Shown here: in pieces, positions 3,075 to 50,991 of the stretch
How the letters are laid out: each line of letters begins with the position of its first letter
How positions within the stretch are numbered: position 1 is the first letter of the stretch
Assembly: GCA_017563185.1 (NCBI GenBank)
Contig: JAFXIL010000195.1
Span: forward strand, 16,159 to 80,158
DNA from: Kiritimatiellia bacterium
GTDB taxonomy: Bacteria > Verrucomicrobiota > Kiritimatiellia > RFP12 > UBA1067
Reading direction: 5' to 3'
DNA: 64,000 nucleotides
Program-made: the position numbers and the translations under genes
The notes under the pieces: model-generated
Told to the model about the DNA's origin: nothing
Databases searched by the model: none
What the model saw: the letters and a program-made list of their open reading frames with translations, nothing else

Positions 3075-3234
3075 GGGTCTATGTTCCTTTCATTGGATGT
3101 GTTTCACAAGATTATACCACAAATTTCGGAAACTGTCGCAGCCGCTGAAAGCGACGTGGAAAATGAAGCGCGCGAAACCGCGAAACTAGAAACCACGAAA
3201 CTAGAAGCCGCAACCACTTTTTTCCATTTACCCA

Positions 3235-4720: not shown

Positions 4721-7456
4721 ATGAGAGTATATCAGTTCGCCAAGAAGATCGGCGCCACGTGCGCAACGGTCATGAAATGGGCAGAGGAGTGCGAAATCGA
4801 GGTGTACTCGCCGCTCTCGGAGCTTGAAGGCGATGACGCCAATACGCTGAACGCCCGCTTCCTCAAGGAGGGGCCTGCGACTGTCAAGGCCGAGACTGAG
4901 GCCGTTCGCGCACGCGGAAAGGCGAAGGCCGAGAAGGCTGTGAAGGCGCGCGCCGCCAAGGACAAGGCACAGGCTGAGGCCCTTGAGGCCGCACGCAGGC
5001 GCGCCATGGCCGTACACAACGGCGAGCCTTTCGTGATGACTCCGGCCGAGCCGCCGAAGGCGGAAGAAGTCCACGCAGAGAAGCCGGCGAAGGAGCAGAC
5101 GGAGCCGGTTGAGGAGAAGGGGCCGAAGGTTGAGATCGGAGTGTCCCTGCCCGAACTGCCCAAGGTGAGCTTTGAGATGTCGGAGGAGCAGGACACTTCT
5201 GGCGGAGATGATTTCGAGGACGAAGACGACGAGGACGCTCTCGACTATCTGCAGGGCAAGGACCGCGGACGCTCCTCCAAAAAGGACGTCAAGAAGGAGA
5301 AGGATTCCAAGAAGGACGAGGAGAAGGGTGGCTCCAGGCGCGACCGCGAGAGAGGCGAGCGCGACAGGAAGGACGCTCCTGCGAAGAAGGACCGCGATGT
5401 GCGCGCTACGGCAAGAACTGCCGAGCCTGCCGCCGCGCGCCGTTCTGCCGCGCCAGCTGCGCCCGCAGCGCCTGCTGCCAAGCATCCTGCAGCGCCGCAG
5501 CGCCCCGCCTCCACGCGCGTGGGCGGTCATCGCGCGGGCTTCTCTTCCGTGTCCATGAAGCTGTCACGTCCGCAGGTGCAGATCGGCACTGCCAAGCCGG
5601 TGGTCACGGCAGTCGGCGCGCCGACTGCCGCCCCCGCCGCTCCCGCGAAGCCAACGATATCGCTTTCCGTGTCGACCCGCGAGATCTCGATCCGCGGCGC
5701 GGTGGTGGTGAAGGAGCTCGCGCTCAAGCTCGGCATACGCCCGAACAGGCTAATCGCCGATCTCATGGGCCTGAAGATACTCGCCTCCATCAACCAGCGC
5801 GTCGAGCCGGAGGTGGCCATCAAGGTGGCGCAGAAGTACGGCTACAAGGTGAACGTGGAGCACGCGCGCGACGCTGCGAACAAGAAGCCCGTGCTGAAGT
5901 CGATCGACGCAGACGACGAGATCCCGCAGGACAAGCCCGAGGACATGCAGCCGCGTCCTCCGGTGGTCACCTTCCTCGGCCATGTGGACCACGGCAAGAC
6001 GACTCTCATGGACTACATCCGCCACGCGCACGTGGCGGCCGGCGAGGCTGGCGGCATCACGCAGCAGATCTCCGCCTACCAGGTGGACGTGCAGGGCCGC
6101 AAGATCACGTTCCTCGACACGCCCGGCCACGCCGCGTTCAACGCGATGCGCCAGCGCGGCGCGCAGCTCACCGACATCGCAGTGATCATCATCGCGGCAG
6201 ACGACGGCATCATGCCGCAGACCGAGGAGGCTATCAAGTTCGCCCGCCAGGCCGGCGTGCAGATCATGGTGGCCATCACCAAGTGCGACAAGCCCACCGC
6301 CAACACCCAGCGCGTCAAGCAGCAGCTGCAGAAGGCCGGTCTCACCCCCGAAGAGTGGGGTGGCGACATCGTGTGCTGCGAAGTGTCGGGCGTCTCGGGC
6401 CAGGGCGTGGACAACCTTCTCGAGATGATGCTGCTGCAGGCCGACGTGCTCGAGCTTTCCGCCAACCCTCGCCGCCGCGCCAACGGCTACGTGATCGAGG
6501 CCGAGCTCGAACAGGGCTTCGGCCCCTCCGCCACGCTGCTCGTCACCGGCGGCACCCTCAAGGTGGGCGACGCAATCCTCATCGGCGAGCACTTCGGCAA
6601 GGTGCGCTCTCTCATCGACGACCGCGGCCGCCGCATCAAGGAGGCGCCTCCCGCGACGCCCGTGAAGTGCACTGGTCTCTCCGGCGTGCCCGAAGCAGGC
6701 GCGGAGTTCCGTGTGATGCTCGACGAGAAGCGCGCCCGCACGCTCGCCGAGGAGACGGCCCGTCTGCGCAAGGAGCAGGAGCTTTCGCAGACGAAGGCGC
6801 TCTCGCTCGACGACCTCATGAGCCAGATGAACGCCGGCGACAAGCGCGAGCTGAGCGTGGTAGTGAAGAGCGACACGCAGGGCTCACTCGAGGCGATCGT
6901 CGAGGCGCTGCGCGGCATCAAGAGCGAGAAGGTGGGCCTCAAGATCATCGGCACTGGCACGGGCAACGTCTCCATCACCGACGTGAAGAGCGCCGCCGCT
7001 GGCAAGGCCGTGATCGTGGGCTTCGACATCGGCTGCGACTCCGGCGTGCAGCAGCAGGCCCGCCACGACGGCGTGCGAATCAACTCGTTCCGCATCATCT
7101 ACGAGCTGATCGACCATGTGAAGAAGACCATGCTCGACCTTCTGCCGCCAGAGTACACAGAGAAGATCAAGGGCCACGCCCAGGTCAAGGCGATCTACGA
7201 CATCGGCAAACTCGGAAAAATCGCAGGCTCGCAGATGCTCGACGGCTCTCTCGTGGCCTCGGCCCGCTACCGCATCCTCCGCAACGGCGCCAAGGTGTGG
7301 GAAGGCAAGGTGCAGACGCTGCGCCACTTCAAGGACGAGGTCAAGGAGGTCACCGGCCAGCAGGAATGCGGCATCTGCTTTGCGAACTACGAGGGCTTCG
7401 CCGAGGGCGACGTGGTGGAGTGCTATATCCTCGAGGAACTGCCGCGCTCGCTCTAG
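4721..7456 (+). CDS. infB: translation initiation factor IF-2
   Basis: 911 aa. The N-terminus MRVYQFAKKIG… is IF2-like, with a charged low-complexity linker. The GTPase G1 motif is GHVDHGKTTLMDYIR, and DTPGHAAF and NKCD-like (TKCDK) motifs follow. Synteny is nusA-infB-rbfA. Confidence 0.95.
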   Translation: MRVYQFAKKIGATCATVMKWAEECEIEVYSPLSELEGDDANTLNARFLKEGPATVKAETEAVRARGKAKAEKAVKARAAKDKAQAEALEAARRRAMAVHNGEPFVMTPAEPPKAEEVHAEKPAKEQTEPVEEKGPKVEIGVSLPELPKVSFEMSEEQDTSGGDDFEDEDDEDALDYLQGKDRGRSSKKDVKKEKDSKKDEEKGGSRRDRERGERDRKDAPAKKDRDVRATARTAEPAAARRSAAPAAPAAPAAKHPAAPQRPASTRVGGHRAGFSSVSMKLSRPQVQIGTAKPVVTAVGAPTAAPAAPAKPTISLSVSTREISIRGAVVVKELALKLGIRPNRLIADLMGLKILASINQRVEPEVAIKVAQKYGYKVNVEHARDAANKKPVLKSIDADDEIPQDKPEDMQPRPPVVTFLGHVDHGKTTLMDYIRHAHVAAGEAGGITQQISAYQVDVQGRKITFLDTPGHAAFNAMRQRGAQLTDIAVIIIAADDGIMPQTEEAIKFARQAGVQIMVAITKCDKPTANTQRVKQQLQKAGLTPEEWGGDIVCCEVSGVSGQGVDNLLEMMLLQADVLELSANPRRRANGYVIEAELEQGFGPSATLLVTGGTLKVGDAILIGEHFGKVRSLIDDRGRRIKEAPPATPVKCTGLSGVPEAGAEFRVMLDEKRARTLAEETARLRKEQELSQTKALSLDDLMSQMNAGDKRELSVVVKSDTQGSLEAIVEALRGIKSEKVGLKIIGTGTGNVSITDVKSAAAGKAVIVGFDIGCDSGVQQQARHDGVRINSFRIIYELIDHVKKTMLDLLPPEYTEKIKGHAQVKAIYDIGKLGKIAGSQMLDGSLVASARYRILRNGAKVWEGKVQTLRHFKDEVKEVTGQQECGICFANYEGFAEGDVVECYILEELPRSL

Positions 7457-9459: not shown

Positions 9460-9468
9460 TGCTATAAT
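9460..9468 (+). promoter_or_regulatory. extended -10 element TGcTATAAT, 7 nt upstream of the sod ATG (leaderless-type arrangement)
   Basis: TGCTATAAT at 9460-9468; the ATG at 9476 follows a 7-nt spacer. The same architecture recurs at 24456 and 25628. Confidence 0.4.
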
Positions 9469-9475
9469 GTCTGCC

Positions 9476-10174
9476 ATGAAAACAGACATTACTAGACGAC
9501 GTTTTGCGGCAGGCGCGGCGTGCGCCGCTCTGGCCGCGTGCGCCGATGCCAAGAGAGGAAAGCCCGCCATGAAGGAGATAGCTCTTCCACCGCTGCCGTA
9601 TGCCGAAGACGCACTTGCGCCCGTCATCTCGGCAAAGACGATTTCCTACCACTACGGAAAGCACCATGCCGGGTACATAAAGGCACTGAATGGCCTTATA
9701 TCCGGAACTCATTATGAAACTCTGTCGCTCTCGGAGATGGTGGGGCTTTCGCGCGAGCTGAACGATCCCGGGATATTCAACAATGCAGCCCAGGCGTGGA
9801 ACCACGACTTCTACTGGCATTCGCTCGCCCCTGTGGGCAAGGGAGGCGAACCGTCGGCCGAACTGCTCAAGGCGATCAACGAGTCGTTCGGGTCGCTTGA
9901 CAATTGCAAGAAGGCGCTTTCCCAAGCCGCCACGAGGCAATTCGGAAGCGGCTGGGCGTGGCTCGTCGCAAAGGGCGGAAAACTCCTCGTGGAGAGTACA
10001 GGCAACGCCGACACGCCGTGCAGGCAGCAGTACGTGAAGCCGCTTCTCACCATCGACGTGTGGGAGCATGCCTACTATCTCGACTGGCAGAACAACCGCG
10101 CCGCATACGTCAAGGCGATTGTCGACGGTCACCTGGACTGGTCCGCCGCCTCCAGTCGCTTCGCGTCGGCCTGA
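9476..10174 (+). CDS. Fe/Mn-family superoxide dismutase with N-terminal export/lipoprotein-like signal
   Basis: SOD signatures are present: YHYGKHH and DVWEHAYYLDWQNNRAAYV. The N-terminus MKTDITRRRFAAGAACAALAACADAK has an RRRF TAT-like motif and a lipobox-like LAAC. An alternative start lies at 9467. Confidence 0.85.
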   Translation: MKTDITRRRFAAGAACAALAACADAKRGKPAMKEIALPPLPYAEDALAPVISAKTISYHYGKHHAGYIKALNGLISGTHYETLSLSEMVGLSRELNDPGIFNNAAQAWNHDFYWHSLAPVGKGGEPSAELLKAINESFGSLDNCKKALSQAATRQFGSGWAWLVAKGGKLLVESTGNADTPCRQQYVKPLLTIDVWEHAYYLDWQNNRAAYVKAIVDGHLDWSAASSRFASA

Positions 10175-10193: not shown

Positions 10194-11165
10194 ATGGCAG
10201 CCGCCCATAATGAAGGCGCATCGCGCCGAAAGGCCGGATCTCTGGACCGGCGCTCGTTCGTTGGATCGCTCGCGGCGTTTGGCGCGGGACAGGTTGCGTT
10301 TGGCGCGACGAACTGCGTTGAGCAGACGTCTGCCGCGCCTAAGCCGAATAACAGGTTCTCGGCGTGGGACGAAGTGTCGCTTGGCGGCACGGGCATTCGC
10401 ACGTCGCGTCTTGGCTTCGGAACGGGCGTGAAGTCCGGCAACCGCTCCAGCGGGATGGTCCGCCGCAACGGACACGACGGCGCGGTGAAGCTGGTGCGCG
10501 CCGCATACGAGCGCGGGATAAGGTTCTTCGACACTGCCGACAGCTACGGCACCCACGCGGTGCTGCGCGAGGCGCTCTCTCCGTTTCCGCGTTCGTCCTA
10601 CGTAATCTGCACGAAGTACTGGTTCATGGGCGGCGGCATCCCGGAGGCCGACAAGTCCGACGTCGAGAGCTCCGTCAGCCGCTACCTTCGCGAGCTAGGA
10701 ACGGACTACATTGACATTTTGCAGCTGCATTGCGTGTTTCAGCCAGATTGGCCGACAAATCTCCAGAAGCACATGGAGGGGCTTGAGCGCTGCAAGAAGG
10801 CAGGAAAGATCCGCGCCCATGGCTGCTCGTTCCACGGCGCGAAGTCGCTTCCGCTCGCTGCCGACACGAAGTGGCTTGACGTGGCGCATGTGCAGATCAA
10901 CCCGTTTGGAAGCAAGATGGGACTCAAGCCAGACGAGGCGCTTGAGCAGGTACGGAGACTGCACGCCGCCGGGAAGGGCGTGATCGGGATGAAGGTGCTT
11001 GGCGAAGGGGCTATAGCCAAGGAAGGGCGCATGGACCAGTCGATTGCCTGGGTGCTGAAGAACAATGCTGCGGATGTGCTTGACATCGGTTTTCTCGACA
11101 TCGCCGAGATCGACGACATCGCCCGCCGTATCGCGGCGGTCGAGGGGACAGTCCCCAACACCTAG
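10194..11165 (+). CDS. aldo/keto reductase with twin-arginine signal peptide
   Basis: Internal start MAAAHNEG…SLDRRSFVGSLAAFGAG (TAT motif), with RBS ggaggtg upstream. The AKR fold is indicated by GxGxxxxG…RFFDTADSYG…ILQLHC…GVIGMKVLGEG. The last codons (…GTVPNT*) are themselves a copy of the downstream palindromic repeat. Confidence 0.8.
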   Translation: MAAAHNEGASRRKAGSLDRRSFVGSLAAFGAGQVAFGATNCVEQTSAAPKPNNRFSAWDEVSLGGTGIRTSRLGFGTGVKSGNRSSGMVRRNGHDGAVKLVRAAYERGIRFFDTADSYGTHAVLREALSPFPRSSYVICTKYWFMGGGIPEADKSDVESSVSRYLRELGTDYIDILQLHCVFQPDWPTNLQKHMEGLERCKKAGKIRAHGCSFHGAKSLPLAADTKWLDVAHVQINPFGSKMGLKPDEALEQVRRLHAAGKGVIGMKVLGEGAIAKEGRMDQSIAWVLKNNAADVLDIGFLDIAEIDDIARRIAAVEGTVPNT

Positions 11166-11399
11166 CGGGGACAGTCCCCAATGCTTCCAAGGGGGACAGT
11201 CCCCAATATCCAAGGGGGACAGTCCCCAATGCTTCCAAGGGGGACAGTCCCCAATGTTTGAAAAGGAGAACAGATGAGAACACCTAGCGGGGACAGTCCC
11301 CAATGCTTCAAGGTGACAGTCCCCAATATCCAAGGGTGACAGTCCCCAATGCTTCCAAGGGGGACAGTCCCCAATGTTTAGAAAAGGAGAACAGATGAA
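11142..11399 (+). repeat. tandem duplication (2 x ~122 bp) containing 9 copies of a ~24-bp sub-repeat with palindromic core GGGGACAGTCCCC
   Basis: The direct repeat unit aacacctagcggggacagtccccaatgcttccaag…aaaaggagaacagatga occurs twice (11156-11277 and 11278-11399). Each unit carries four GGGGACAGTCCCCAAT(A/G)(T/C)… sub-repeats at 23-25 bp spacing. A ninth copy lies within the last codons of the upstream reductase gene. Each 122-bp unit ends with RBS aaaaggagaacag plus ATG. Confidence 0.9.
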
Positions 11400-17037: not shown

Positions 17038-18725
17038 ACGGCCGGTTTCCCGGCACCAGAAGAGTATAGCACTTGTCCGCTCTCCGCGTCCAGTATAGAA
17101 TACGATTCCGGATGACGGTGGAGTTCCGAGACGAAGGTGAGCTTTGTGTTGAACTGTGCCTGCAGCTGTGCGAGAATCTGCGCGTCTTCGGTGCGCAGGC
17201 GCTGCATCACCGCGGGGGCGATCACTATCTTCGGCACGAACGGACGCTTCTCCGCGTCGGCCTTGCGCAGCAGGGACGTGAGCTGGCGCTGGAGTTCGAT
17301 GGAGACTGCGAGCGGACTCTTCACCACGCCGTGGCCGCCGCAGCACGGGCAGGTGCTGCTGAGCATGGAGAGGATGGATTCCTCGTGGCGCTGGCGGCTC
17401 ATCTCCAGGAGGCCGAGGTCGCTGATCTCGAGCACGTTGGTGCGCGCGCGGTCGCGCTTGAGCGCGTCCTTGAGCGCGCGGTACACCTGCTTCTGGTGCT
17501 TGCGGCTCTTCATGTCGATGAGGTCGAGCACCACGAGTCCGCCGATGTTCCTGAGGCGCAGCTGGCGGGCGACCTCCTCCACGGCCTCGAGGTTGACTTC
17601 GAGAATCGCCTCCTCCTGAGTGCCCTTGCACTTGTGGTGGCCGGTGTTCACGTCCACCGCGATGAGGGCCTCTGTCTCGTCGATCACGAGATAGCCGCCG
17701 CCTTTCAGGCGCACTTGGCGCTTGAATGCGTCGTGCAGCTGGCGCTCAACGCCGAGGCGCTCGAAGATGTTCTCTGCGCCGTCGTAGCGGCGCACCTTGC
17801 CGCGTGCGCGGCGGGAGATGCGGCTCGTGGCGTCGCGCAGCTTCTCGAAGGTGCTCTCGTCGTCCACGACAACGCTGTCGATGTCCTCGGTGAGCCAGTC
17901 GCGCACCACGCGCTCCACGAGGCCGGGCTCCTGCCACACGCAGCAGGGCGTGCGCAGGTTCTTCACGTTGCCCTGCAGCTCGTGCCAGCTCTGCAGGAGA
18001 TTGCGCATGTCGCGCACGAAGGAGGTTCCCTTGGCGCCAACGCCTGCTGTGCGCACGATGAGGCCCACGTCGTCGGGCAGGAGAAGGCGGTCGAGAATCT
18101 TCTTGAGGCGCTTGCGCTCCTCGGCGTCGCCGATCTTGCGGCTGACGCCGCGAGTCTTGGTGCCGGGCATCATCACTAGGTAGCGTCCGGGAATGGAGAG
18201 ATTCGTGGTCACGCGTGGCCCCTTGGTGGAGATGGGGCCCTTCGTCACCTGCACGATGATCTCGGTGCCGGGTTTGAAGCGCTCGTGGATCTCCTCGGTG
18301 GTGAGGCGCGGGGGCTTGCCGCGGCGCTTGGAGTTGTTCTTGCCTTTGCCGTTCTTGCCGTTTTTGCCGTTCTTGCCAGAGGACTTGTCGTCCGCATAGT
18401 CGTCGCTGCCGTCGTCGATTTCGTCGAGGAAGGCGTCTACGTCGGGCTGCATGTCCCAGTAGTGGAGGAACGCGTTCTTCTTCAGGCCGATGTCCACAAA
18501 CGCCGCCTGCAGGTCGTCCTGCAGGTTCTGGATGCGCCCCTTGAAGACGCATCCGACGAGGCGCTCGTCCTCGGGATGTTCCACCATGTACTCCTCGAGA
18601 CGTCCGTTTTCCATCACGGCCACGCGCGTCTCGAGCTTTTCGACGTTCACGAGTATCTCTCGCTTGATCTTGCTTCGGTTCAGCCAGTTCCTGACTGTGT
18701 TCACCACTGTTTGTATCACTGACAT
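17034..18725 (-). CDS. rng: RNase E/G-family endoribonuclease
   Basis: The start MSVIQTVVN…REILVNVEKLETRVAVMENGRLEEYMVE is the S1-domain start of the Rne/Rng family. Further markers are DVNTGHH (the DNase-I-like catalytic region) and a CPxCxGxG zinc link. It is 564 aa. RBS gaaaggaa lies upstream. Confidence 0.85.
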   Translation of the reverse strand: MSVIQTVVNTVRNWLNRSKIKREILVNVEKLETRVAVMENGRLEEYMVEHPEDERLVGCVFKGRIQNLQDDLQAAFVDIGLKKNAFLHYWDMQPDVDAFLDEIDDGSDDYADDKSSGKNGKNGKNGKGKNNSKRRGKPPRLTTEEIHERFKPGTEIIVQVTKGPISTKGPRVTTNLSIPGRYLVMMPGTKTRGVSRKIGDAEERKRLKKILDRLLLPDDVGLIVRTAGVGAKGTSFVRDMRNLLQSWHELQGNVKNLRTPCCVWQEPGLVERVVRDWLTEDIDSVVVDDESTFEKLRDATSRISRRARGKVRRYDGAENIFERLGVERQLHDAFKRQVRLKGGGYLVIDETEALIAVDVNTGHHKCKGTQEEAILEVNLEAVEEVARQLRLRNIGGLVVLDLIDMKSRKHQKQVYRALKDALKRDRARTNVLEISDLGLLEMSRQRHEESILSMLSSTCPCCGGHGVVKSPLAVSIELQRQLTSLLRKADAEKRPFVPKIVIAPAVMQRLRTEDAQILAQLQAQFNTKLTFVSELHRHPESYSILDAESGQVLYSSGAGKPAV

Positions 18726-18898
18726 GTCTGTTCCTTTCGGTTGTAAGTTTGTTTGAGAGTTTGAGAGTTTGAAAGTTTGAAGGTTTGAAAGTTTGAGAGT
18801 TTGAAAGGTTGAGAGTTTGAAAGGTTGAGAGTTTGAAAGGTTGAGAGTTTGAAAGTTTGAGAGTTTGAAGGTTTGAAAGGTTGAGAGTTTGATGGGTT
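18726..18898. repeat. 8-bp microsatellite (GTTTGARR / GGTTGAGA; ~18 tandem copies) occupying the whole rodA-rng intergenic spacer
   Basis: The tract gtttgagagtttgagagtttgaaagtttgaaggtttgaaagtttgagagtttgaaaggttgagagtttgaaagg… occupies 18747-18895. On the coding (minus) strand it reads as (YYTTCAAAC)n, i.e. a CA/U-rich unstructured 5' leader directly in front of the rng start. Confidence 0.9.
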
Positions 18899-23366: not shown

Positions 23367-24410
23367 TCAGTCTCTCTTGTTCTTGAGGAGAATGTCGAGC
23401 TGGCTCATGACCTGTCCGGTGCCCTCGGCCACCGCCGAGAGAGGATCGTCCGCAAGCGTGACGGGCAGACCCGTCTCCTGGGCGATCAGCTTGTCGAGGC
23501 CGCGCAGAAGCGAACTGCCGCCGGAGAGCACGATGCCGCGGTCCACAAGGTCCGCCGCCAGCTCCGGTTCGCAGTTGCCCAGCGTCGAGCGAACAGCCTC
23601 GACGATGTTTGAAACAGGTTCTGTGAGCGAGTCTCTGATCTCCTCGGACGAGATCGTCATCGTCTTCGGAAGCCCCGCCACTATGTCACGGCCGCGCACT
23701 TCCATGGTCATCTCCTGACCTGTAGGAAACGCCGAACCGATCGTCATCTTGATTTCCTCGGCCGTGCGCTCGCCAATCAGAAGATTGTACACGCGCCGCA
23801 TGTGGCTCACGATGCACGCGTCCATGGCGTCGCCCGCCGAACGCACGCTGCGCGAATGCACTATGCCGGCAAGCGAGATGATCGCCACCTCGCATGTGCC
23901 GCCGCCGATGTCCACTATCATGCTGCCCGCCGGCTCTGACACCGGCAGTCCCACTCCGATCGCCGCCGCCATCGGCTCCTCGACCAGAACAACCTCTCCC
24001 GCCCCTGACGCCTTGGCGGCATCTTCGACCGCGCGCTTCTCCACCTCCGTGATGTCGCCTGGAACGGCAATCACCACGCGCGGCTTCGCGTAGTTCCTCC
24101 AAACGTGCTTGGGGCACACTTTGTTTATGAAATAGCTGAGCATGGCCTCCGTTACGTCAAAGTCCGCAATCACGCCGGACTTCATCGGACGAATGGCCAT
24201 GATGTTTCCGGGAGTGCGGCCAAGCATCTTCTGAGCCTCAATTCCAACGGCCAGAACGCGCTTGGTGTCCTCCTTTATTGCGACAACGCTGGGCTCCCTC
24301 AGCACTATTCCATGGTCCTTGACGTAAACAAGGCAGTTGGCAGTGCCGAGGTCTATGCCGATGTCGGTTGAGAAGAAGCTCGAAAAGAGACCTTTGAATT
24401 TGGAAAACAT
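23367..24410 (-). CDS. mreB: actin-like rod shape-determining protein MreB
   Basis: The motifs DLGTANCLVYV…DIGGGTCEVAI… are actin-fold phosphate-binding motifs. It is 347 aa. Confidence 0.95.
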   Translation of the reverse strand: MFSKFKGLFSSFFSTDIGIDLGTANCLVYVKDHGIVLREPSVVAIKEDTKRVLAVGIEAQKMLGRTPGNIMAIRPMKSGVIADFDVTEAMLSYFINKVCPKHVWRNYAKPRVVIAVPGDITEVEKRAVEDAAKASGAGEVVLVEEPMAAAIGVGLPVSEPAGSMIVDIGGGTCEVAIISLAGIVHSRSVRSAGDAMDACIVSHMRRVYNLLIGERTAEEIKMTIGSAFPTGQEMTMEVRGRDIVAGLPKTMTISSEEIRDSLTEPVSNIVEAVRSTLGNCEPELAADLVDRGIVLSGGSSLLRGLDKLIAQETGLPVTLADDPLSAVAEGTGQVMSQLDILLKNKRD

Positions 24411-24455
24411 GTTACATATTATAGACTATTCGCGCGCGCGTTGCAAGGGGATTTG

Positions 24456-24464
24456 TGATATACT
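24456..24464 (+). promoter_or_regulatory. extended -10 element TGaTATACT inside the 15-mer GATTTGTGATATACT, 6 nt upstream of the anSME ATG
   Basis: An identical 15-mer also occurs at 25622-25636, and the start codon follows 6-7 nt later in both cases. This suggests leaderless transcripts and/or a shared operator. Confidence 0.4.
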
Positions 24465-24470
24465 TGTGGC

Positions 24471-25535
24471 ATGGATTTTTCTCTGCTGGTAAAACCCGTG
24501 GGCTCGGCATGCAATCTTGCCTGCGACTACTGCTTCTACTGCCCGGCCAACGGAGCGCGCGCCCCGGCGCCTGCGCGCATGACGCGCGCCGTGCTGGAGC
24601 GGATGCTCGCTTCGTATCTGGCCGAGCCAGTTTCCGCCCCGGCGGTCGCCTTCCAGGGTGGCGAACCGCTGCTGGCGGGCGAGGACTTCTTCCGCGGGGC
24701 TGCTGCAATCGCCGCGCGCGCCGGGCGGCGCGTTTCGTTCTCCGTCCAGACGAACGGCACCCTCGTCACACCCTCCCTCGCCCGCTTCTTCGCCGCGGAG
24801 GGTTGGCTCGTCGGCGTGAGCGTTGACGGCCCCGCCTCCCTGCACGACCTTCACCGCCGCACCTCGTCGTCCTCACCCTCCCATGCCGATGTCCTGGCCG
24901 GTCTCTCGGCCCTCCGTTCAGCCGGCGTCGAGTTCAACACCCTCACCCTCGTCACCCCAGCCAACGCCAGTTCCCCCGAAATCGTCTATCGCCACCTTCG
25001 CGACGAGATCGGCGCCCGCTTCCTCCAGTTCATCGAATGCACATCGCCGGCGCCCTACGCGGTCTCCGCCGCTGCATGGGGCGATTTTCTCTGCCGCCTA
25101 TACGATGTGTGGCGCGCGTGCGGCGACGAGCGCCGCGTGAGCGTGCGCCTATTCGACACGATCGTGCTACGGCTTCTGGGCGGCCCGCCGGACGCCTGTC
25201 CGTTCGCCAGCGACTGCCGCAACTACTTCGTCGTCGAGAACGATGGCTCGGTCTATCCCTGCGACTTCCACGTCTCCCCCGAATGGCGCCTTGGCGACGT
25301 CATGCATGATTCATGGACTTCGCTCGTGGAGAGTCCCCTCTACGCCGCATTTGGACAGCGCAAGTCCGATCTTCCGTCCCAGTGCCTGGAATGTCCATAC
25401 TGCTTCATCTGCCAGGGCGACTGTGTGCGCAACCGCGCGCCGGGCGGTCCCTCACGCCTGTGCGCCGGCTGGCGCCGCTTCTTCGATCACGCCATCCCCG
25501 GCCTCGCCGAACTCGCCCGCGAGGTGGTGTGGTAG
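24471..25535 (+). CDS. anaerobic sulfatase-maturating enzyme (radical SAM / SPASM)
   Basis: CNLACDYCFY is the radical-SAM CxxxCxxC cluster. The C-terminal Cys-rich SPASM region is CPFASDC…CDFHV…CLECPYCFICQGDC. The size (354 aa) and architecture match AnSME (AslB/ChuR-like). Confidence 0.85.
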   Translation: MDFSLLVKPVGSACNLACDYCFYCPANGARAPAPARMTRAVLERMLASYLAEPVSAPAVAFQGGEPLLAGEDFFRGAAAIAARAGRRVSFSVQTNGTLVTPSLARFFAAEGWLVGVSVDGPASLHDLHRRTSSSSPSHADVLAGLSALRSAGVEFNTLTLVTPANASSPEIVYRHLRDEIGARFLQFIECTSPAPYAVSAAAWGDFLCRLYDVWRACGDERRVSVRLFDTIVLRLLGGPPDACPFASDCRNYFVVENDGSVYPCDFHVSPEWRLGDVMHDSWTSLVESPLYAAFGQRKSDLPSQCLECPYCFICQGDCVRNRAPGGPSRLCAGWRRFFDHAIPGLAELAREVVW

Positions 25536-25627
25536 ACTCGTGGCTCGTGGCTCGTGGCCCGTGACGCCACTTCGTTTTTGTTGTTGCGCGCATGGAACCG
25601 TTAGACTGGCGCTGAGATGCCGATTTG

Positions 25628-25636
25628 TGATATACT
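25628..25636 (+). promoter_or_regulatory. extended -10 element TGaTATACT inside the second copy of GATTTGTGATATACT, 7 nt upstream of the GH43 ATG
   Basis: See the feature at 24456; the 15-mer here is at 25622-25636 and the ATG is at 25644. Confidence 0.4.
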
Positions 25637-25643
25637 CTTTGCA

Positions 25644-28238
25644 ATGAAAAAGCCAGAAGAAATCAAGATCGTCGGATTGACGGGGAAGGTCGTGTTCGCG
25701 CTGTGTGCCGCAATGGCGGCCTTCGGCGCGCATGAGGCGCGGGGAGCGGCGATACAGCCCATGTTCGCCGCCGCAACGGCGCTTCAGTCTTCTGACGGCA
25801 CGAATCCGATCGTCAAGGACCGTTTCTCGCCCGATCCCGCCCCGGTGGTGGACGGTGATACGCTCTATGTATTCACAGGGCACGACGAACCCGACGCGCG
25901 CGGGTACAAGATGAAGGACTGGCAGGTGTTCTCGACGAAGGATATGGTCCACTGGCACAGCCACGGCGCGGTGATGGACACCTCCACGTTCAAGTGGGCG
26001 CGCCAGGGCGACCGCGCCTGGGCCTCGCAGGCGATCAAGCGCAACGGCAAATGGCATTGGTATGTCGCGGTGCAGCACGGAAAGGGCGGCGACGCGATCG
26101 GCGTGGCCACTGCCGACTCGGTGGATGGCCCATGGACCGATCCCGTGGGCGACGCTCTTCTGCGCGCCCCCGCCGGCTACATCGACCCGTCCGTATTCAT
26201 AGACGACGACGGCAAGGCCTGGCTCTTCTGGGGCAACTGCGGCGGAAACCCCGGCTGCTGGTACGTAGAGCTCAAGGAGAACATGCACGAGCTCGCCGGC
26301 GAGGTGAAGCCGGTGGCGGGCCTCATGGACGAAGCCGCGTTCGGCGCGCCGCTGTGGAAGAAGTGGGGCGCAGGCCACCGCCGCAACGGAGAGAAGAACA
26401 CCAACTTCGAGGAGGCGCCCTGGATATACAAGCTCGGCACCACCTACTACCTCGAATACGCCGCCGGCGGATGCCCGGAATTCTGGGCATACTCCACGGC
26501 GAAGTCGATACACGGCCCTTGGACCTACCGCGGCGCCGTCACGGACTGCGCGGAGAACACGGGCACCATCCACAGCGGCAGCGTCTTCTTCAAGGGCTCG
26601 TGGTATCTCGTCTACCACAACGCGAACCTGCCCAACGGCGCCGACTGCCGGCGCAGCTTCTGCATCGAAAAGTACACGCGCAATCCCGACGGCTCTATCC
26701 CGTTTGTCCACCAGACGAAGAGCGGCGTCTCCCGCGCGGGGGCGACATCGCTTGCGCCAACGCTCTGGGCTGATGTGCCCGACATCGCGATGTGCCGCAA
26801 GGGCAAGAAGTTCTACATGGTTTCCACGTCCATGCACTTCAACCCCGGCATCCCCGTGATGGTTTCGACGAACCTCGTGGACTGGAAGACGGCCTCGTAC
26901 TGCTACGAGACGATAGAGAACCGTCCTAAGGACCGTCTCGACGACGGACGCAACGACTATTCGGGCGGCACATGGGCAAGCTCCATCCGCTACGACGCGC
27001 AGGGCGACATGTTCTACGTCACGAGCTTCAACAACCAGATCGACTCGACGTATCTCTTCTGGACGCGCGACCCAGAGAAGGAGCCGTGGTCGTTCTCTCG
27101 CCTTTCGCCGAAGCAGTACGACGAATCTCTCTGGATAGAGGACGGCCGGTTCTGGATATACGCCACCGTGCCGGGGCGCCCGTACAAGGTGCGTCTCACC
27201 GAGCTGAAAGACGACCTCTCGGGCTTCAAGGACCGCGGCGAGATCGTGCTCGACAACGTGACCGACTGCTGCGGGGGCGGCGGGCTCGGCGAGGGCACGC
27301 AGGTGTTCAAGCGCAACGGATGGTACTATCTCGTCAACATCGCATGGCCGCGCGGAAATTGCCGCACGGTGGTGGTGCATCGCGGTAAGTCTCGGAGGGG
27401 ACCGTGGGAAGGAAAGGTCGTATTGCAGCGAGAAGGCATCGCCCAGGGGTCGTTCATAGACGACGCAGACGGCAACTGGTACGGCTATTTCTTCGGCGAC
27501 CGCGGCGCGGTGGGGCGCTGCCCGTACATCCTGCCAATCACGTGGGAGGACGACTGGCCGGTGGTGGGGCGGACGAATCTAGTTTCCTCCGCCTCGCCGC
27601 GGATGCCGGGCGTCGTGGCGTCCGACGAATTCAACTCCGGCAAGCTCGACATCGCCTGGCAGTGGAACCACAATCCCGTGGAGAGCCTCTGGTCGCTCAC
27701 GGCAAGGCCAGGATGGATGCGGCTCTCCACGGACCGTCTCGACAGCGACCTCCTCAGCGCGCGCAATACGCTTACGCAGCGCTGCTGGGGACCCGCCTGC
27801 CGCGCCGTCACGAAGCTCGACGTCTCTGGCATGAAGCCGGGCGACTGGGCTGGAATAGCCTTCTTCCAGAAGGAATACGGCTTCATCGGCGTGCGAAAGA
27901 CGTCCGACGGCCGCGTGTTCGTGGAAGTGACTGGCCCCGCCGTCAAGCGCGGCCAGGGCGCTGTGGCGGAGCTCAGGAGCGGAGCGAAGGAGGTCTACCT
28001 CAAGGCGATTGGCGATTTCGCGCGCCCGGCGCGCGAGTTCTTCAACGGCAATCCCGAGGGCGACGACCTTGGCCGCTTCGCGTTCAGCGAGGACGGCGTT
28101 GCATGGTTCCCGCTTGGCCGGTCCTTCAAGATGCGCTATACGATACCGCATTTCACGGGCTACCGCTTCGCGCTCTTCTACTTCTCCACCGAGGAGGCGG
28201 GCGGGCACGTTGATTTCGATTTCCTCAGGCTGGACTGA
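25644..28238 (+). CDS. secreted multi-domain GH43-family glycoside hydrolase (two beta-propeller-like modules plus C-terminal beta-sandwich)
   Basis: It has a signal peptide (MKKPEEIKIVGLTGKVVFALCAAMAAFGA). The first module has GH43 motifs (DPAPVVDGDTLYVFTGHDE…DPSVFIDDDGKAWLFWG…EAPWIYK). A second propeller-like module spans about aa 380-650, and the C-terminal ~220 aa is concanavalin-like. An ATG at 25617 is an alternative start. Confidence 0.8.
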   Translation: MKKPEEIKIVGLTGKVVFALCAAMAAFGAHEARGAAIQPMFAAATALQSSDGTNPIVKDRFSPDPAPVVDGDTLYVFTGHDEPDARGYKMKDWQVFSTKDMVHWHSHGAVMDTSTFKWARQGDRAWASQAIKRNGKWHWYVAVQHGKGGDAIGVATADSVDGPWTDPVGDALLRAPAGYIDPSVFIDDDGKAWLFWGNCGGNPGCWYVELKENMHELAGEVKPVAGLMDEAAFGAPLWKKWGAGHRRNGEKNTNFEEAPWIYKLGTTYYLEYAAGGCPEFWAYSTAKSIHGPWTYRGAVTDCAENTGTIHSGSVFFKGSWYLVYHNANLPNGADCRRSFCIEKYTRNPDGSIPFVHQTKSGVSRAGATSLAPTLWADVPDIAMCRKGKKFYMVSTSMHFNPGIPVMVSTNLVDWKTASYCYETIENRPKDRLDDGRNDYSGGTWASSIRYDAQGDMFYVTSFNNQIDSTYLFWTRDPEKEPWSFSRLSPKQYDESLWIEDGRFWIYATVPGRPYKVRLTELKDDLSGFKDRGEIVLDNVTDCCGGGGLGEGTQVFKRNGWYYLVNIAWPRGNCRTVVVHRGKSRRGPWEGKVVLQREGIAQGSFIDDADGNWYGYFFGDRGAVGRCPYILPITWEDDWPVVGRTNLVSSASPRMPGVVASDEFNSGKLDIAWQWNHNPVESLWSLTARPGWMRLSTDRLDSDLLSARNTLTQRCWGPACRAVTKLDVSGMKPGDWAGIAFFQKEYGFIGVRKTSDGRVFVEVTGPAVKRGQGAVAELRSGAKEVYLKAIGDFARPAREFFNGNPEGDDLGRFAFSEDGVAWFPLGRSFKMRYTIPHFTGYRFALFYFSTEEAGGHVDFDFLRLD

Positions 28239-40213: not shown

Positions 40214-40343
40214 TTAACGCAGAGACGCAGAGACGCATAGGCGCAGAGAATCCCATATAAAGCAGAAAGAGAATGAGAATCGAAACTATGAAGAATATGA
40301 GCACATACGATTCTTTCTCCGCGCCTCTGCGCCTCTGCGTTAA
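40214..40343. repeat. imperfect inverted repeat: 23-bp arms (TTAACGCAGAGACGCAGAGACGC / GCGCCTCTGCGCCTCTGCGTTAA, 2 mismatches) built from tandem CGCAGAGA octamers, flanking an 84-bp AT-rich core
   Basis: Left arm 40214-40236; right arm 40321-40343. Arm similarity extends, with gaps, to about 39 bp (…GCGCAGAGAATC / GATTCTTTCTCCGCGC…). The core (ccatataaagcagaaagagaatgagaatcgaaactatgaagaatatgagcacatacg) is AT-rich, unlike the rest of the genome. It lies between dinG and hrpB. Confidence 0.85.
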
Positions 40344-45840: not shown

Positions 45841-46272
45841 TCAAGTATCGTCGGTAGTCATCCACCCCGGCTTGATTTCCTCTGCCATTGCGCATACAAG
45901 TGCAGCTGGACCGTATCCGATTCTGTCGGCCGCTTTCATCGCCTCTAATGCCTTCATGGGGTCTTTCTTGCAACCTTGTCCCATGCCTAATCTGATTCCC
46001 TTTTCATAAAGCATTTTCCCATGGTTGTACATTCCCGTGTTTACATGATTCATCCTGCTTCCGCGGTTTTCAGCGTCCTTGATCACGTTACTTGTCGCCA
46101 TTGCAGAAAGAAAGATCATTGATACGGTGACAGAGAGCTGTAGCCTCCATGACAGGGCACGTATCACGCGAAGAAGTGCGCGCGAACAGTCGGAACCGCC
46201 GTACCAGTCGGCAGCGATCTTGTTCTTAAGCTCTTCGAGGATGGAGAATGGATATTTCACTGTTGTGCCCAC
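45841..46272 (-). CDS. small Sel1-like repeat protein (tentative; GTG start; low-GC segment)
   Basis: 143 aa. The C-terminal half (GMYNHGKMLYEKGIRLGMGQGCKKDPMKALEAMKAADRIGYGPAALVCAMAEE) fits a Sel1/TPR-like repeat. GC is about 50% against about 68% for the genome. It is tightly spaced between the lipoprotein gene and the RR gene. Confidence 0.4.
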   Translation of the reverse strand: MGTTVKYPFSILEELKNKIAADWYGGSDCSRALLRVIRALSWRLQLSVTVSMIFLSAMATSNVIKDAENRGSRMNHVNTGMYNHGKMLYEKGIRLGMGQGCKKDPMKALEAMKAADRIGYGPAALVCAMAEEIKPGWMTTDDT

Positions 46273-46280
46273 GGCATCTT

Positions 46281-47072
46281 TTAATGCCTTTCTTTCTTTG
46301 CTTGAGGTAAATCTTTTTCCATCTCGCTTGGCAGTTTGCCAAGTACAGACTTTACATGTGACACAATAGCGGCTCGTTGCTCTAGCGTAAGACGGTGGCT
46401 TATGGAATGATATATGTGGTTGATTCTGCGAAGCTGGCTGTCTTCTTCCAGGCCCATTTCCTTTTTGAAATGTTCAAGTCGTCTATATTGTGTTGACTGA
46501 CGTCTATCGTTCAGGTTTAATCCAGGCATTGCGCTATCTGCCGCAGTTGCAGCTTGTCGTTCTTTTAGTATTACGTCCAGTAGTATGTTCCACCCCTCTA
46601 TTTTTTCTGGATTACGGAAGAATATGGTGAGCGCAGCCCATTGGCTGATATTCCATTGGTTACGCAAACGAACCTCAAGTCGATTATGTTCCTTTTCCTC
46701 TCCTTGAGCGTCATGTTCAATGTCGAAAGAAATATTCGTAGCGGCTTTAACGTAAATGCCGCTCAGAATTTCATAGAGGTTGGTCTGGGAATCTGCCGTA
46801 GCTTCCTTGCATAAATCATATGCTAGACTGTAGGAGTCGCATCCTCTAGCATCAAGCATTCCTGCTAGTTGCTGAACGCGAGTTTTAAATTTCTCTATGG
46901 CGTTACGCGAATCATCATTTTCTTCTTTTTGCGATGTAACTTGCTCGTGATGAGGCATTGCAACATTGCTCTTGATATCACTACGCTCTCTGCCGTCGCG
47001 ACATCCAACAACTACAGCAATCAGGCAGATGCTGAAGGATAGTGCCTTATCCCGTAATCCAAAGATGCTCAT
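46281..47072 (-). CDS. hypothetical lipoprotein (low-GC segment)
   Basis: The signal peptide carries a lipobox (MSIFGLRDKALSFSICLIAVVVGC). The 263-aa body is charged with no recognisable domain. Its ATG overlaps the stop of the upstream 876-aa gene (ATGA). Confidence 0.5.
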   Translation of the reverse strand: MSIFGLRDKALSFSICLIAVVVGCRDGRERSDIKSNVAMPHHEQVTSQKEENDDSRNAIEKFKTRVQQLAGMLDARGCDSYSLAYDLCKEATADSQTNLYEILSGIYVKAATNISFDIEHDAQGEEKEHNRLEVRLRNQWNISQWAALTIFFRNPEKIEGWNILLDVILKERQAATAADSAMPGLNLNDRRQSTQYRRLEHFKKEMGLEEDSQLRRINHIYHSISHRLTLEQRAAIVSHVKSVLGKLPSEMEKDLPQAKKERH

Positions 47073-49699
47073 TCTGGTAATCTCCCTGTTGTTATGATGG
47101 TGTTTGTACCGCGGATTACGTAATGTCCTGCCTTGATCACGCCAGCAGAGCCGTTTGGCAGAATTGTAAATTTCTGCTGCTCTGGAACTGCATTGGTTCG
47201 GGCTGGCATAGAGTCTCCGATCGTATTATGCTCATTCCACCCTAGTGGAATTGACCATATTATCACACCCTCCTGCCATCCGAACGAAACATCGTTTGTA
47301 AGTACGCCGTCGGGCGTCATTGGCTTAAGTATTCTGGAATTAGATGCTTCGTCCTCAAGCATGAAGAGATTGTCGTCACCTATGTTGAGCCACTCTCCGG
47401 CATGGTGGTCAGTTGTATGCGCCCATTCATCTGAGAATTCCTCGTTGCGAAAATATCCACTTACACCGCCTTCGGTGGTTGGTATCTCTTGCATGGCAAT
47501 GTTTCCGAAAGACACAGTGCGTGGGGCAATATACAGTTCTAGGAGCATACCTACGCCGCCAGCTTCGTTTTCGCCCAATCCAAAGTCAATTTTAGTTACT
47601 CGAGGACAATAGTATTTTCTCGGCTCTAGAATCATACAAGTAGTTTGGTAAGACTCATTGTTGACAGAAATTGTAAGAATACACTCGCCACCCTCTAAAG
47701 GAGCATGGAAGGAATGCGCGGTGTTCCTTAATGCAGAAATGGTCCCCTTGTTGACGTTCCAAGTGGCAGTCAATGATTTAGGCCAATGCCAGCAGGCAAC
47801 TTCTTCTTTTATCCCATAAATGTGCCTGCTCGTATTGCCGTCCAACGGCGCACTACGTATAGCCTCAAGTTGAACCTTGACTGTCGTTGCAGATGCCGAG
47901 TCTGACACAACTTCCAACAGAGACGGGGTGAATGCCGCGTTCACTATGATGTCGTCTGCTGCATCGCTGTGCCGTGCCGCTTCATAATCCACGGCAAACG
48001 ACATGCTACCTCCTGATGGAATCATTGCCATGTAGGGGAAGTGCAGATTGGCCCCGCCAGTTCGGACGAGTTGGTCAATATTCTGCGCTGTCAAGAGTAG
48101 CATGCCGCCGGTTTCTCCACCGTACACCGAGACTGAAAGAGTTGTGCTGGTGGATCGGCGCGCCACAACGTCATTCGGTGCATTCGTGTATGCGTCTTCA
48201 TAGAATACAACCGGCTTGTCAAAATCCACCGAGACGGACGCGGGCAGCTGCGGCATGCCTGGAAAGCCCGATCCAGCCGCAGCACATCCACACCACAACG
48301 ACGGTACGGCGAAAACCGCGCCTTCGAGCGTATATGTTCCGTCAATGGAAGTTCCGCCGCATTCGCAGTTGTCGCATCCCGTGAACCCAATCCAGTTGCC
48401 GCTGGCGACGTATGAACATGACGAGCCACCCGACAAAAGGCGGGGCCCGACACTGCCGCCAAATCCCGGCGTCCACGAGAATGCGCCGCCAGGATCGAAC
48501 GGCTGAACGCCGACGGCGTATCCGCCATCGTCAGGCGAGAGGTCGAACGAGAGCGGCCACTTGACTGTGAACGAGCGTCCGTCGTTGAGTCCATTTATGG
48601 TCACGACCGCGTTGCTGGGCGCTGACACGGAGAATGGCTCCGTGGATGTCACTATGTACTCAACGCCCATCAAAAGCGGAACATGGTTTGTCTCGCCGCC
48701 TCTGGCGATGACTATGGGCGAACCGAGATGAGATTCGCGGTCGGCGTTGAAGCAGATCGGCACAGGACCGCGATCCACCACGACGTCCACGAAGTAGTAG
48801 GCGTTCGTGTTCACAATGTCGGCGCATACGACATTGTACCATTCCTCGTTCGTCCCGTGCGCATCAGGTCCCGCAACGAGCGGCTCCGGGTCGAGGGTGT
48901 TTTCAAGGCCATCGTTGTCCCAGTCGAATGGAAACGCCGGTGCATATTCAACTGTCTGATTTTGATAGCGATACGCAAAGCGTCCGTCAGAGAAGAATTC
49001 CGCCTGGAAGTTGGTTATGCAGCTAACATCGCGGTTCACCGGCGAGTTCTCCCATGTGACGATCAGCGAGTTAGACGGCGATGTCGCATGCCAGAACACG
49101 TTTGAGACGCCGCCCGGCAGGAGATGCCAGTTGAACGCCGGCACCACGGCAAGCGGCGCTTCAAAAGGCGACGGAAAGTAGCATGTGCGCAGAGTCGGAC
49201 GAAACTCGCATTTGGAGAACACGGCCATTCCCTCGAGAAATCCCTCGCGCCATGGGAATGACCAGCCGACAGAAGGAATGCGCATCACATCTTCAAATCC
49301 GCCTCGCACGAGCCACGGCTCGTATGTCTGTGGCGTGCCGAAGGCATCACGCGCCACGATCTCACAACCCTCGCGCGTCTCAGCCACGCGCCAGCTGTTG
49401 GTAATGTCCGCGTCGGCAATTGGAAGCGCGATGTTCCCAGCATTGCGGTCACGCGGGACGCGTGACCCTACTGACCCTACCATGTTTGGCGGATCATTGG
49501 TGTACTTGGCGAAACCCTTGTACACTCCCGTTGCCGCCATCGCGCCCAGCAGCAGCGCCAAAACAAAGTTGTGCTCCTTCACAAGCCACGCAAGCGCATT
49601 GACGCGATTCCACACGAACCACGCCACAGCAACCGCAACACACACTCCCAGCAGTGCATGCAGTACATCTGGCGGCAAGGGATGGAGCATTTTGCACAT
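47069..49699 (-). CDS. large membrane-anchored protein of unknown function (two N-terminal TM helices; Cys/Gly-rich middle; compositionally distinct C-terminal third)
   Basis: 876 aa. TM1 is LHALLGVCVAVAVAWFVW and TM2 is FVLALLLGAMAATGVY. A DxDxDG-like acidic motif (FDWDNDGLENTLDPEP) is thrombospondin-type-3/calcium-binding-like. A Cys cluster (CSYVASGNWIGFTGCDNCECGG…CGCAAAG) follows. Codons about 1-530 are high-GC; the remaining ~340 codons are about 50% GC. The ATG at 49699 abuts the HK stop codon with a 0-nt spacer. Confidence 0.6.
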   Translation of the reverse strand: MCKMLHPLPPDVLHALLGVCVAVAVAWFVWNRVNALAWLVKEHNFVLALLLGAMAATGVYKGFAKYTNDPPNMVGSVGSRVPRDRNAGNIALPIADADITNSWRVAETREGCEIVARDAFGTPQTYEPWLVRGGFEDVMRIPSVGWSFPWREGFLEGMAVFSKCEFRPTLRTCYFPSPFEAPLAVVPAFNWHLLPGGVSNVFWHATSPSNSLIVTWENSPVNRDVSCITNFQAEFFSDGRFAYRYQNQTVEYAPAFPFDWDNDGLENTLDPEPLVAGPDAHGTNEEWYNVVCADIVNTNAYYFVDVVVDRGPVPICFNADRESHLGSPIVIARGGETNHVPLLMGVEYIVTSTEPFSVSAPSNAVVTINGLNDGRSFTVKWPLSFDLSPDDGGYAVGVQPFDPGGAFSWTPGFGGSVGPRLLSGGSSCSYVASGNWIGFTGCDNCECGGTSIDGTYTLEGAVFAVPSLWCGCAAAGSGFPGMPQLPASVSVDFDKPVVFYEDAYTNAPNDVVARRSTSTTLSVSVYGGETGGMLLLTAQNIDQLVRTGGANLHFPYMAMIPSGGSMSFAVDYEAARHSDAADDIIVNAAFTPSLLEVVSDSASATTVKVQLEAIRSAPLDGNTSRHIYGIKEEVACWHWPKSLTATWNVNKGTISALRNTAHSFHAPLEGGECILTISVNNESYQTTCMILEPRKYYCPRVTKIDFGLGENEAGGVGMLLELYIAPRTVSFGNIAMQEIPTTEGGVSGYFRNEEFSDEWAHTTDHHAGEWLNIGDDNLFMLEDEASNSRILKPMTPDGVLTNDVSFGWQEGVIIWSIPLGWNEHNTIGDSMPARTNAVPEQQKFTILPNGSAGVIKAGHYVIRGTNTIITTGRLPE

Positions 49700-50851: not shown

Positions 50852-50878
50852 TTAGTCCCAATGAAACCATTTGGCACA

Positions 50879-50887
50879 ATTATATCA
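50879..50887 (-). promoter_or_regulatory. extended -10 element TGaTATAAT on the minus strand, ~36 nt upstream of the histidine-kinase ATG (putative operon promoter)
   Basis: The reverse complement of 50879-50887 is TGATATAAT. This is the same TGATATA(A/C)T core seen at 24456 and 25628. Confidence 0.4.
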
Positions 50888-50962: not shown

Positions 50963-50991
50963 TTGACGCGCGTTTAGCACAATGGTATGAT
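50963..50991 (+). promoter_or_regulatory. putative sigma70 promoter (-35 TTGACG, 17-nt spacer, -10 TATGAT) for the metallophosphoesterase gene
   Basis: TTGACG at 50963-50968 and TATGAT at 50986-50991. RBS aaggagagg precedes the ATG at 51036. Confidence 0.4.

Follow-up and report, generated by a model that had tools for sequence, protein, structure and literature searches.

Identical 15-mers before a sulfatase-maturase-like gene and a GH43 gene of a Kiritimatiellia bacterium are probably generic extended −10 promoters of leaderless transcripts

Introduction

Promoters of the extended −10 or '−16 region' type (TRTGn-TATAAT) were reportedly described in Firmicutes and Escherichia coli by Voskuil and Chambliss in 1998 and by Mitchell et al. 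in 2003. Leaderless genes, in turn, carry a promoter signal directly before the start codon: group C of GeneMarkS-2 is defined by a Pribnow box 6–8 nt from gene starts (PMC6028130), and Zheng et al. (2011) described a TA-like signal that takes the degenerate form TAnnnT in high-GC Actinobacteria and Deinococcus (PMC3160421). Here, we analyse a stretch of 64,000 nt from a Kiritimatiellia bacterium (GenBank assembly GCA_017563185.1, contig JAFXIL010000195.1, positions 16,159 to 80,158 of the forward strand; hereafter, the window), in which one 15-mer, GATTTGTGATATACT, directly precedes two consecutive genes, the first encoding an anaerobic sulfatase-maturase (anSME)-like protein and the second a GH43 glycoside hydrolase. 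We consider it likely that each copy is a generic, −35-independent extended −10 promoter giving a leaderless mRNA, and that the two genes form separate transcription units and not an operator-defined regulon.

The arrangement of a −10 element at the start codon fits leaderless genes of the GeneMarkS-2 group C type. As in Mycobacterium and Deinococcus, which belong to that group, the −10 element lies 6–8 nt before the ATG, no Shine–Dalgarno (SD) sequence is present, the genes concerned are the first of their units, and SD-led genes coexist with them. Unlike the high-GC trend of Zheng et al., the Kiritimatiellae element shows a complete TATAAT, strongly extended by TG/T−17, at 60–64% GC. With the −16 region promoters of Firmicutes and E. 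coli it shares a TG one base before the −10 hexamer, T−17 and a purine or T at −16, and the putative promoters of the anSME-like, GH43 and sod genes likewise appear to have no recognisable −35. However, many promoters of this lineage also have a TTGC-type −35 at 17 nt (that of mreB, and 7/23 in the sample described below), and their bases −18 to −22 are T/A-rich, with G at −22. Our literature searches found no description of leaderless genes or promoters in Kiritimatiellae. Akkermansia muciniphila is a fellow gut bacterium of the Planctomycetes–Verrucomicrobia–Chlamydiae (PVC) superphylum. In its Cappable-seq map, 10% of the mapped transcription starts lay at annotated gene starts, with a −35/−10 bias (PMC4782308); those starts were mapped experimentally and in a different phylum/class, whereas the Kiritimatiellae case is drawn from sequence only.

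Two identical extended −10 elements at gene starts

Exact copies of GATTTGTGATATACT lie at 24450–24464 and 25622–25636, both on the plus strand. Six nucleotides (TGTGGC) separate the first from ATG 24471, and seven (CTTTGCA) the second from ATG 25644. The original prediction had reported these two copies 6–7 nt before their start codons, had taken their core for an extended −10, had assigned the same geometry to sod and had placed a related minus-strand motif, with a leader, before a histidine-kinase operon. All of the coordinates of the two copies hold, the reading of the core is borne out by TG at −15/−14, T−17 and the hexamer TATACT, the sod motif does stand 7 nt before ATG 9476, and the histidine-kinase leader measures approximately 20 nt. 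Both copies read T−19 T−18 T−17 G−16 T−15 G−14 A−13 TATACT, with TGTGA directly 5′ of the hexamer, and the hexamer itself (24459–24464 and 25631–25636) agrees with TATAAT at at least five of six positions. From this base-by-base agreement, both 15-mers are predicted to be σ70-type promoters of the extended −10 ('−16 region', TRTGn-TATAAT) class. A −35 match at 16–18 nt spacing was sought for both, and none was found.

The 15-mer and its core occur more often in the window than expected. With at most three mismatches, GATTTGTGATATACT has three matches against 0.18 expected, a number reached in 0/100 shuffles; the third match is AATTTGTGGTATAAT, at 3111–3125 on the minus strand. The core TGNTATANT occurs seven times against 0.40 expected, and the sod and histidine-kinase sites are among these occurrences. 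Several other accounts of the 15-mers were considered and rejected. The hexamer TTGCAA at 24441–24446 does not serve as the −35 of the anSME-like gene, since it would leave a 12-nt spacer and belongs, as the −35, to mreB on the opposite strand. A longer duplicated repeat or a mobile element is ruled out by the identity of the two copies, which is limited to 15 nt between unrelated flanks. An Rfam and tRNA search across the whole window returned zero matches, which speaks against a structured RNA or riboswitch at the motif.

The product of 24471–25535 has its best family match in TIGR03942 (anaerobic sulfatase maturase), at 314 bits and thus under the 349 cutoff, and matches anSMEcpe (PDB 4K36-39) with E=1e-58. 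Its residue 3 aligns with anSMEcpe residue 4, and the CxxxCxxC motif occupies residues 14–21. An in-frame TGA lies at 24456–24458, 15 nt upstream of the ATG; because of this stop and the anSMEcpe alignment, the start is pinned, and no alternative is possible. Transcription of the gene is predicted to begin at or beside A24471. For the GH43 gene, the N-terminus is kept as MKKPEEIK or MKRPEEIR in the relatives L004 and L005. ATG 25617, from which the motif would be coding, was rejected as the GH43 start: its frame has a stop in L005, and it is therefore not a conserved start. There is no SD sequence before either the anSME-like or the GH43 start.

Contigs identical or near-identical to the window come from metagenomes, and the closest genomes are ruminant-gut Kiritimatiellae metagenome-assembled genomes (MAGs), namely L004 (93%) and L005 (RGIG4394, from roe deer omasum; 91% identity). 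In these two and in L016, the promoter 15-mer of the anSME-like gene is 100% conserved. The orthologous GH43 promoters of the same three relatives read GATTTATGATATACT, in which a G−16 to A change preserves TRTG, and the bases between the −10 and the ATG vary (ctttgca/ctctgtc/ctttgcc) at a constant length of 7. The adjacency of the two genes is interrupted by inserted genes in all three. In L005, another gene has been inserted and the sequence upstream of approximately −29 has been replaced at GH43, with the promoter core kept; the replacement can be likened to a natural deletion series and fits a promoter that does not depend on a −35 and whose distance to the ATG is constrained.

The mreB gene, on the minus strand, is a third gene with leaderless geometry within the same 1.2 kb, and was overlooked in the original prediction. 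Its promoter (TTGCAA-17-TATAAT) scores 10/12 and stands back-to-back with that of the anSME-like gene, the predicted starts being 61 bp apart. Seven metagenomic relatives with MreB 83–100% identical (L016–L022) keep TTGCnn-17-TATAAT-6/7-ATG, with TAAAAT in L022, and their spacer sequences diverge. In the more distant L024 and L026, mreB keeps TTGCAA-17-TATAAT, with a leader of approximately 50 nt.

Orthologues further afield are organized differently. In L096–L101, where the anSME is 68–70% identical, the gene lacks a promoter of its own and shares 8 nt with the arylsulfatase-like gene that precedes it; as these genes are operonic, conservation of the 15-mer is uninformative in the distant anSME orthologues. 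The L096–L101 arrangement is that of a classic sulfatase-maturase operon, and in the clade of the window the gene has moved beside mreB; no sulfatase gene was detected among the scanned open reading frames (ORFs) of the window. Just downstream of the anSME gene in L096 and L098 there is a separate leaderless-type promoter, TATGnTATAAT-8-ATG. Among GH43 orthologues, that of L104 (81%) is operonic with an SD, that of L106 (77%) is leadered, and that of L105 (68%) has leaderless geometry with a different 5′ part, GGATTTTGGTATAAT-6-ATG.

Promoter geometry and SD sequences in the lineage

The wider comparison drew on a lineage sample of approximately 180 kb in total, as opposed to a whole genome. 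In the window and its close relatives, the first ATG follows a −10-like hexamer at a distance of exactly 6 or 7 nt in 14/147 ORFs, a count that includes orthologous redundancy, and any other −10-to-ATG distance from 0 to 60 nt is represented by at most three ORFs. An independent set comprised four Kiritimatiellae MAG or metagenome loci of 59–62% GC with third-party gene calls (L102, L104, L105 and L106). There, a −10-like hexamer lies 6–9 nt upstream of 10/57 genes, against 0.18 expected from the background hexamer frequency; these include nifU, two aminoacyl-tRNA synthetase genes, an ACT-domain gene, a nitroreductase-like gene, GH123 and GH51 genes, and a GH43 orthologue. Leaderless geometry is found at approximately 20–40% of the transcription-unit starts in the sampled loci, where it coexists with SD-led genes.

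The SD and the −10 element at 6–9 nt are mutually exclusive. An SD core (GGAG, GAGG or AGGA at −18 to −4) precedes none of the 15 genes with leaderless geometry, as against 40/61 others, and all 15 start with ATG. The mean anti-SD duplex energy, computed with an assumed canonical anti-SD, is −1.2 kcal/mol for the former and −5.8 kcal/mol for the latter; Kiritimatiellae have been placed under the CCUCCUUU anti-SD type (PMC10783764). Internal or closely spaced genes have AGGAG-type SDs or overlaps, and not TATAAT.

Promoter consensus

For an unbiased sample, all −10-like hexamers within 60 nt upstream of called starts in L102 and L104–L106 (n=23) were compared with the remaining −10-like hexamers there (n=93). 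TG at −15/−14 accompanies 15/23 hexamers upstream of genes and 6/93 elsewhere; the corresponding counts are 18/23 and 23/93 for T at −17, 13/23 and 19/93 for T at −18, and 7/23 and 4/93 for TTG at −35. An alignment of 35 promoter instances gives the consensus TTGC at −35 to −32, G−22, A−20, T−18, T−17 (86%), D−16, T−15, G−14, g−13 and TATAAT, with TG in 86–89% of the aligned promoters. Given the TG and T−17 enrichment and this alignment, most of the 5′ part GATTTGTG is generic, ATTTGTG in it agreeing with the general promoter consensus of the lineage. The proximity of both copies to that consensus is probably the main reason for their identity.

Two draws from the promoter matrix agree at 15/15 with a frequency of 1.7e-4 when the query sites are left out and of approximately 4e-4 when they are included, as computed from the alignment counts. 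Among the 595 pairs of the 35 instances, two agree at 15/15, two at 14/15 and sixteen at 13/15. Besides the query pair, the other full agreement is that between AATTTGTGGTATAAT at 3111–3125, before a gene for a hypothetical coiled-coil protein (hyp324), and the promoter of nifU in L102, a different Kiritimatiellae MAG. At the scale of a whole genome, some 15/15 promoter pair would be expected.

Discussion

Our data favour a model in which the housekeeping σ70-type holoenzyme of this rumen/gut bacterium would recognise each extended −10 (T−17 R−16 T−15 G−14 n TATAnT) without a −35. As the −10 hexamer ends 6–7 nt before the ATG, the start would fall at, or 1 nt before, its A; transcription would thus begin at the seventh or eighth base past the hexamer, at or beside the A of the ATG. 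The resulting mRNA, with its 5′-terminal AUG, could then be translated directly, without an SD, by leaderless initiation of the kind known in Actinobacteria and Deinococcus. Leaderless mRNAs are the best reading because the start codons are pinned and neither gene has an SD. The original prediction had also proposed leaderless, SD-less mRNAs, and in this part, together with the promoter assignment, we judge that it is likely to be right: the pinned starts, the missing SDs, the kept 6–7 nt spacing and the positional peak speak for it, with the transcription start itself read from geometry.

Several points weigh against this interpretation. A weaker conventional promoter match upstream of the anSME-like gene (TTGAAT-17-TATTAT, 24394–24422, 9/12) could yield an SD-less leader of approximately 42 nt. 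The hairpin that follows the anSME-like gene is weak, which makes some read-through into GH43 possible. A 15/15 agreement in adjacent units is mildly surprising, with an estimated chance of approximately 0.01–0.04 for some pair in the window, and consensus is therefore not the full explanation of the identity. Finally, we infer leaderless transcription from the spacing of the elements.

The original prediction had gone on to read GATTTGTG as a shared regulator site linking the two genes, a claim not supported by our data, in which this 5′ part is generic and near-identical motifs precede unrelated genes. An operator function for the 15-mer, or for its 5′ part, under a factor that co-regulates sulfatase maturation and GH43 glycan degradation would seem very unlikely in view of the generic 5′ part, the orthologue contexts, the lack of a dyad and the absence of an adjacent regulator gene. 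The identity over 15 nt in consecutive units is admittedly rarer than the consensus predicts (approximately 2–4e-4 per promoter pair), a −35 is missing from both promoters, which have the minority bases A−13 and C−8 in common, and GATTTRTGATATACT is kept at both in L004, L005 and L016. The motif also contains TGTGA, which we take to be a CRP/FNR-type half-site; a CRP-like TGTGA-N6-TCACA site was nevertheless ruled out, since the second half reads TGTGG or CTTTG, and neither the 15-mer nor its flanks hold a dyad or a second half-site. T−17 and the TG of the 5′ extension are generic in promoters of the lineage, and the same or near-identical motifs stand before nifU, aminoacyl-tRNA synthetase genes, obg, an ACT-domain gene, a nitroreductase gene, GH10 and GH51. 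The second exact 15/15 pair joins unrelated genes of different MAGs (hyp324 and the L102 nifU). The neighbours of the two genes are the mreB operon and a prephenate dehydrogenase gene, the anSME gene of the 68–70% identical relatives sits behind a sulfatase gene with no promoter of its own, the GH43 orthologues are variously operonic, leadered or GGATTTTGGTATAAT-bearing, and the adjacency of the pair is broken in L004, L005 and L016. A promoter with an embedded operator, in which A−13, C−8 and the GATTT 5′ part of the 15-mer would let a putative regulator couple the sulfatase-maturing enzyme with the GH43 glycosidase in a regulon for glycan degradation, seems to us marginally less probable again.

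A different possibility is that upstream promoters or read-through supply leadered, SD-less mRNAs, on which the A/U-rich 15-mer would act as an unstructured, S1-binding translation enhancer of the non-SD kind found in Bacteroidota. We think this unlikely. An A/T-rich motif immediately 5′ of the start codon in a genome of 63% GC would suit such a role, and both the promoter match at 24394–24422 and the weak terminator between the anSME-like and GH43 genes could provide the transcripts. However, the motif fits a σ70 −10 base for base (TA...T invariant, TG, T−17) and is confined to transcription-unit starts, with internal operon genes mostly led by AGGAG-type SDs, and the mreB copy has a correctly spaced, conserved −35. 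The same motif also occurs 20–60 nt upstream of SD-led genes; as this type of motif drives leadered, SD-bearing genes too, it acts as a promoter and is not a signal for translation at short distance. The GH43 promoter block of L005, kept despite its replaced upstream context, argues in the same direction. Less probable by far is a chance identity between two A/T-rich stretches that have no function and no promoter. There are only two copies, short motifs can recur by chance, and one TGATATACT in the window (4726–4734, minus strand) lies inside infB codons, probably by chance; set against this, 0/100 shuffles reached the observed count, TGNTATANT occurs seven times where 0.4 are expected, both sites are conserved in relatives with their ATG spacing maintained, and the positional enrichment across loci is strong.

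Generic extended −10 promoters with leaderless products, the reading that we prefer, bring nothing conceptually new as a class of promoter. The practical consequences are for annotation: a leaderless-aware model is advisable for calling gene starts in these rumen/gut Kiritimatiellae, which are abundant and uncultured (the start of a GH10 gene in L102 has apparently been called inside the −10 box), and an A/T-rich motif lying directly before a start codon in these genomes should not be taken for a regulator site. The consensus, TTGC at −35, a 17-nt spacer and aTTTdTGgTATAAT, is a usable promoter model for annotation and engineering in the group. More broadly, a PVC lineage appears to transcribe approximately 20–40% of its units leaderless, as judged from the approximately 180 kb sampled, with the essential mreB-mreC-mreD-PBP2-rodA operon included.

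The L102 GH10 gene is a case in point for start calling. At L102 5577–5593, the public start call overlaps the −10 box (TGGTAGAATGgccgccATG); the more probable start is a second ATG, 7 nt after the hexamer, from which a signal peptide begins.

Other features of the window

The features of the window are collected in Table 1. Its intrinsic terminator candidate, between the anSME-like and GH43 genes, was rejected, as the hairpin count is at shuffle level and shuffled sequence folds just as well as the region.

Table 1. Coordinates of genes, promoter-type sites and the hairpin discussed in the text
Feature	Coordinates	Strand	Description
anSME-like gene promoter	24450..24464	+	Extended −10: T−19 to T−17, G−16, TG 24456–24457, TATACT 24459–24464
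anSME-like radical SAM/SPASM gene	24471..25535	+	Radical_SAM and SPASM domains
Terminator-like hairpin	25554..25579	+	Weak (5 bp) with T-tract, between anSME-like and GH43 genes; not above shuffle expectation
GH43 promoter	25622..25636	+	Same extended −10 15-mer, hexamer 25631–25636, then 7 nt and ATG; no −35 match
GH43 (+GH43_C2) glycoside hydrolase gene	25644..28238	+	Domain matches; N-terminus signal-peptide-like, begins MKKPEEIK
mreB promoter	24418..24446	−	−35 TTGCAA 24441–24446, 17-nt spacer, −10 TATAAT 24418–24423, 7 nt (ATGTAAC), ATG 24410
mreB	23367..24410	−	First gene of mreB-mreC-(mreD)-PBP2-rodA operon; leaderless geometry
sod promoter	9460..9478	+	TGCTATAAT (core 9460–9468), then 7 nt, ATG 9476; leaderless geometry
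Histidine-kinase promoter	50879..50887	−	TGATATAAT; ATG 50851, leader of approximately 20 nt
hyp324 promoter	3111..3125	−	AATTTGTGGTATAAT; ATG 3074, leader of approximately 30 nt
Metallophosphatase promoter	50963..50991	+	Canonical leadered comparison: TTGACG-17-(TGg)TATGAT, leader of approximately 38 nt, AGGAG SD, ATG 51036

The sod product is an Fe/Mn superoxide dismutase with a twin-arginine signal. Leadered promoters in the set include, in addition to that of the metallophosphatase gene, those of a Na/Ca exchanger gene (TGGTAGAAT, 25-nt leader, AGGAG SD) and nusA (TTGACT-17-TACTAT, leader of approximately 70 nt). Outside the window, the L102 11054 gene likewise has the motif ahead of an SD-bearing leader. 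The core match TGATATACT at 4726–4734 occupies codons 2–5 of infB and, together with the core match at 17063–17071 described below, differs from an ordinary intergenic promoter in its position.

On the minus strand, 8 nt after the histidine-kinase −10, ATG 50870 opens an 18-codon ORF that lies in another frame and overlaps the kinase start at 50851 (region 50814–50887), and which may represent an upstream ORF of the leaderless type. At 17063–17071 (minus strand), a perfect extended −10, TGCTATACT, is embedded in the RNase E/G gene at its 3′ end. It precedes by 25 nt ATG 17037 of an overlapping downstream gene for a hypothetical protein of 764 aa, and an in-frame GTG lies 6 nt downstream of it. 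The element is conserved in relatives (L005, approximately 1014–1022; L017, 11604) and may be an internal promoter. The region between the GH109-like gene and hyp324 carries TGGTACAAT at 2058–2075 (minus strand), with an ATG after a further 6 nt, directed antisense into the GH109-like gene at its 3′ end; an antisense promoter, an orphan small ORF of the leaderless kind and chance are the candidate explanations.

The window has a GC content of 60–67% except for one low-GC stretch. This island, at 45841–49699 (46.6% GC at 46–48 kb against approximately 63% elsewhere), lies between the genes for a σ54-type response regulator and the histidine kinase and was probably acquired horizontally. Neither Pfam nor PADLOC matches any of the three ORFs in it (143, 263 and 876 aa), and a PADLOC search of the unannotated ORFs of the window, those of the island included, gave zero matches.

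Many intergenic regions of the lineage are filled by short-period tandem repeats (7–8 nt, up to 16 nt), seen in the window at 18751–18892, 25537–25563, 3171–3211, 40217–40249 and 63218–63246, and in L004, L018, L019, L022, L103 and L104. The stop codon of the anSME-like gene is followed by four copies of CTCGTGG, an array that is much longer in L004, and 18 copies of GTTTGAAA separate rodA from the RNase E/G gene. Upstream of the GH92 gene, at 11144–11398, there are approximately ten tandem palindromic units (GGGGACAGTCCCC plus approximately 11 nt, period 23–25), including a 120-nt duplication in which the SD and the ATG are repeated (GAAAAGGAGAACAGATGA at approximately 11260 and at 11381).

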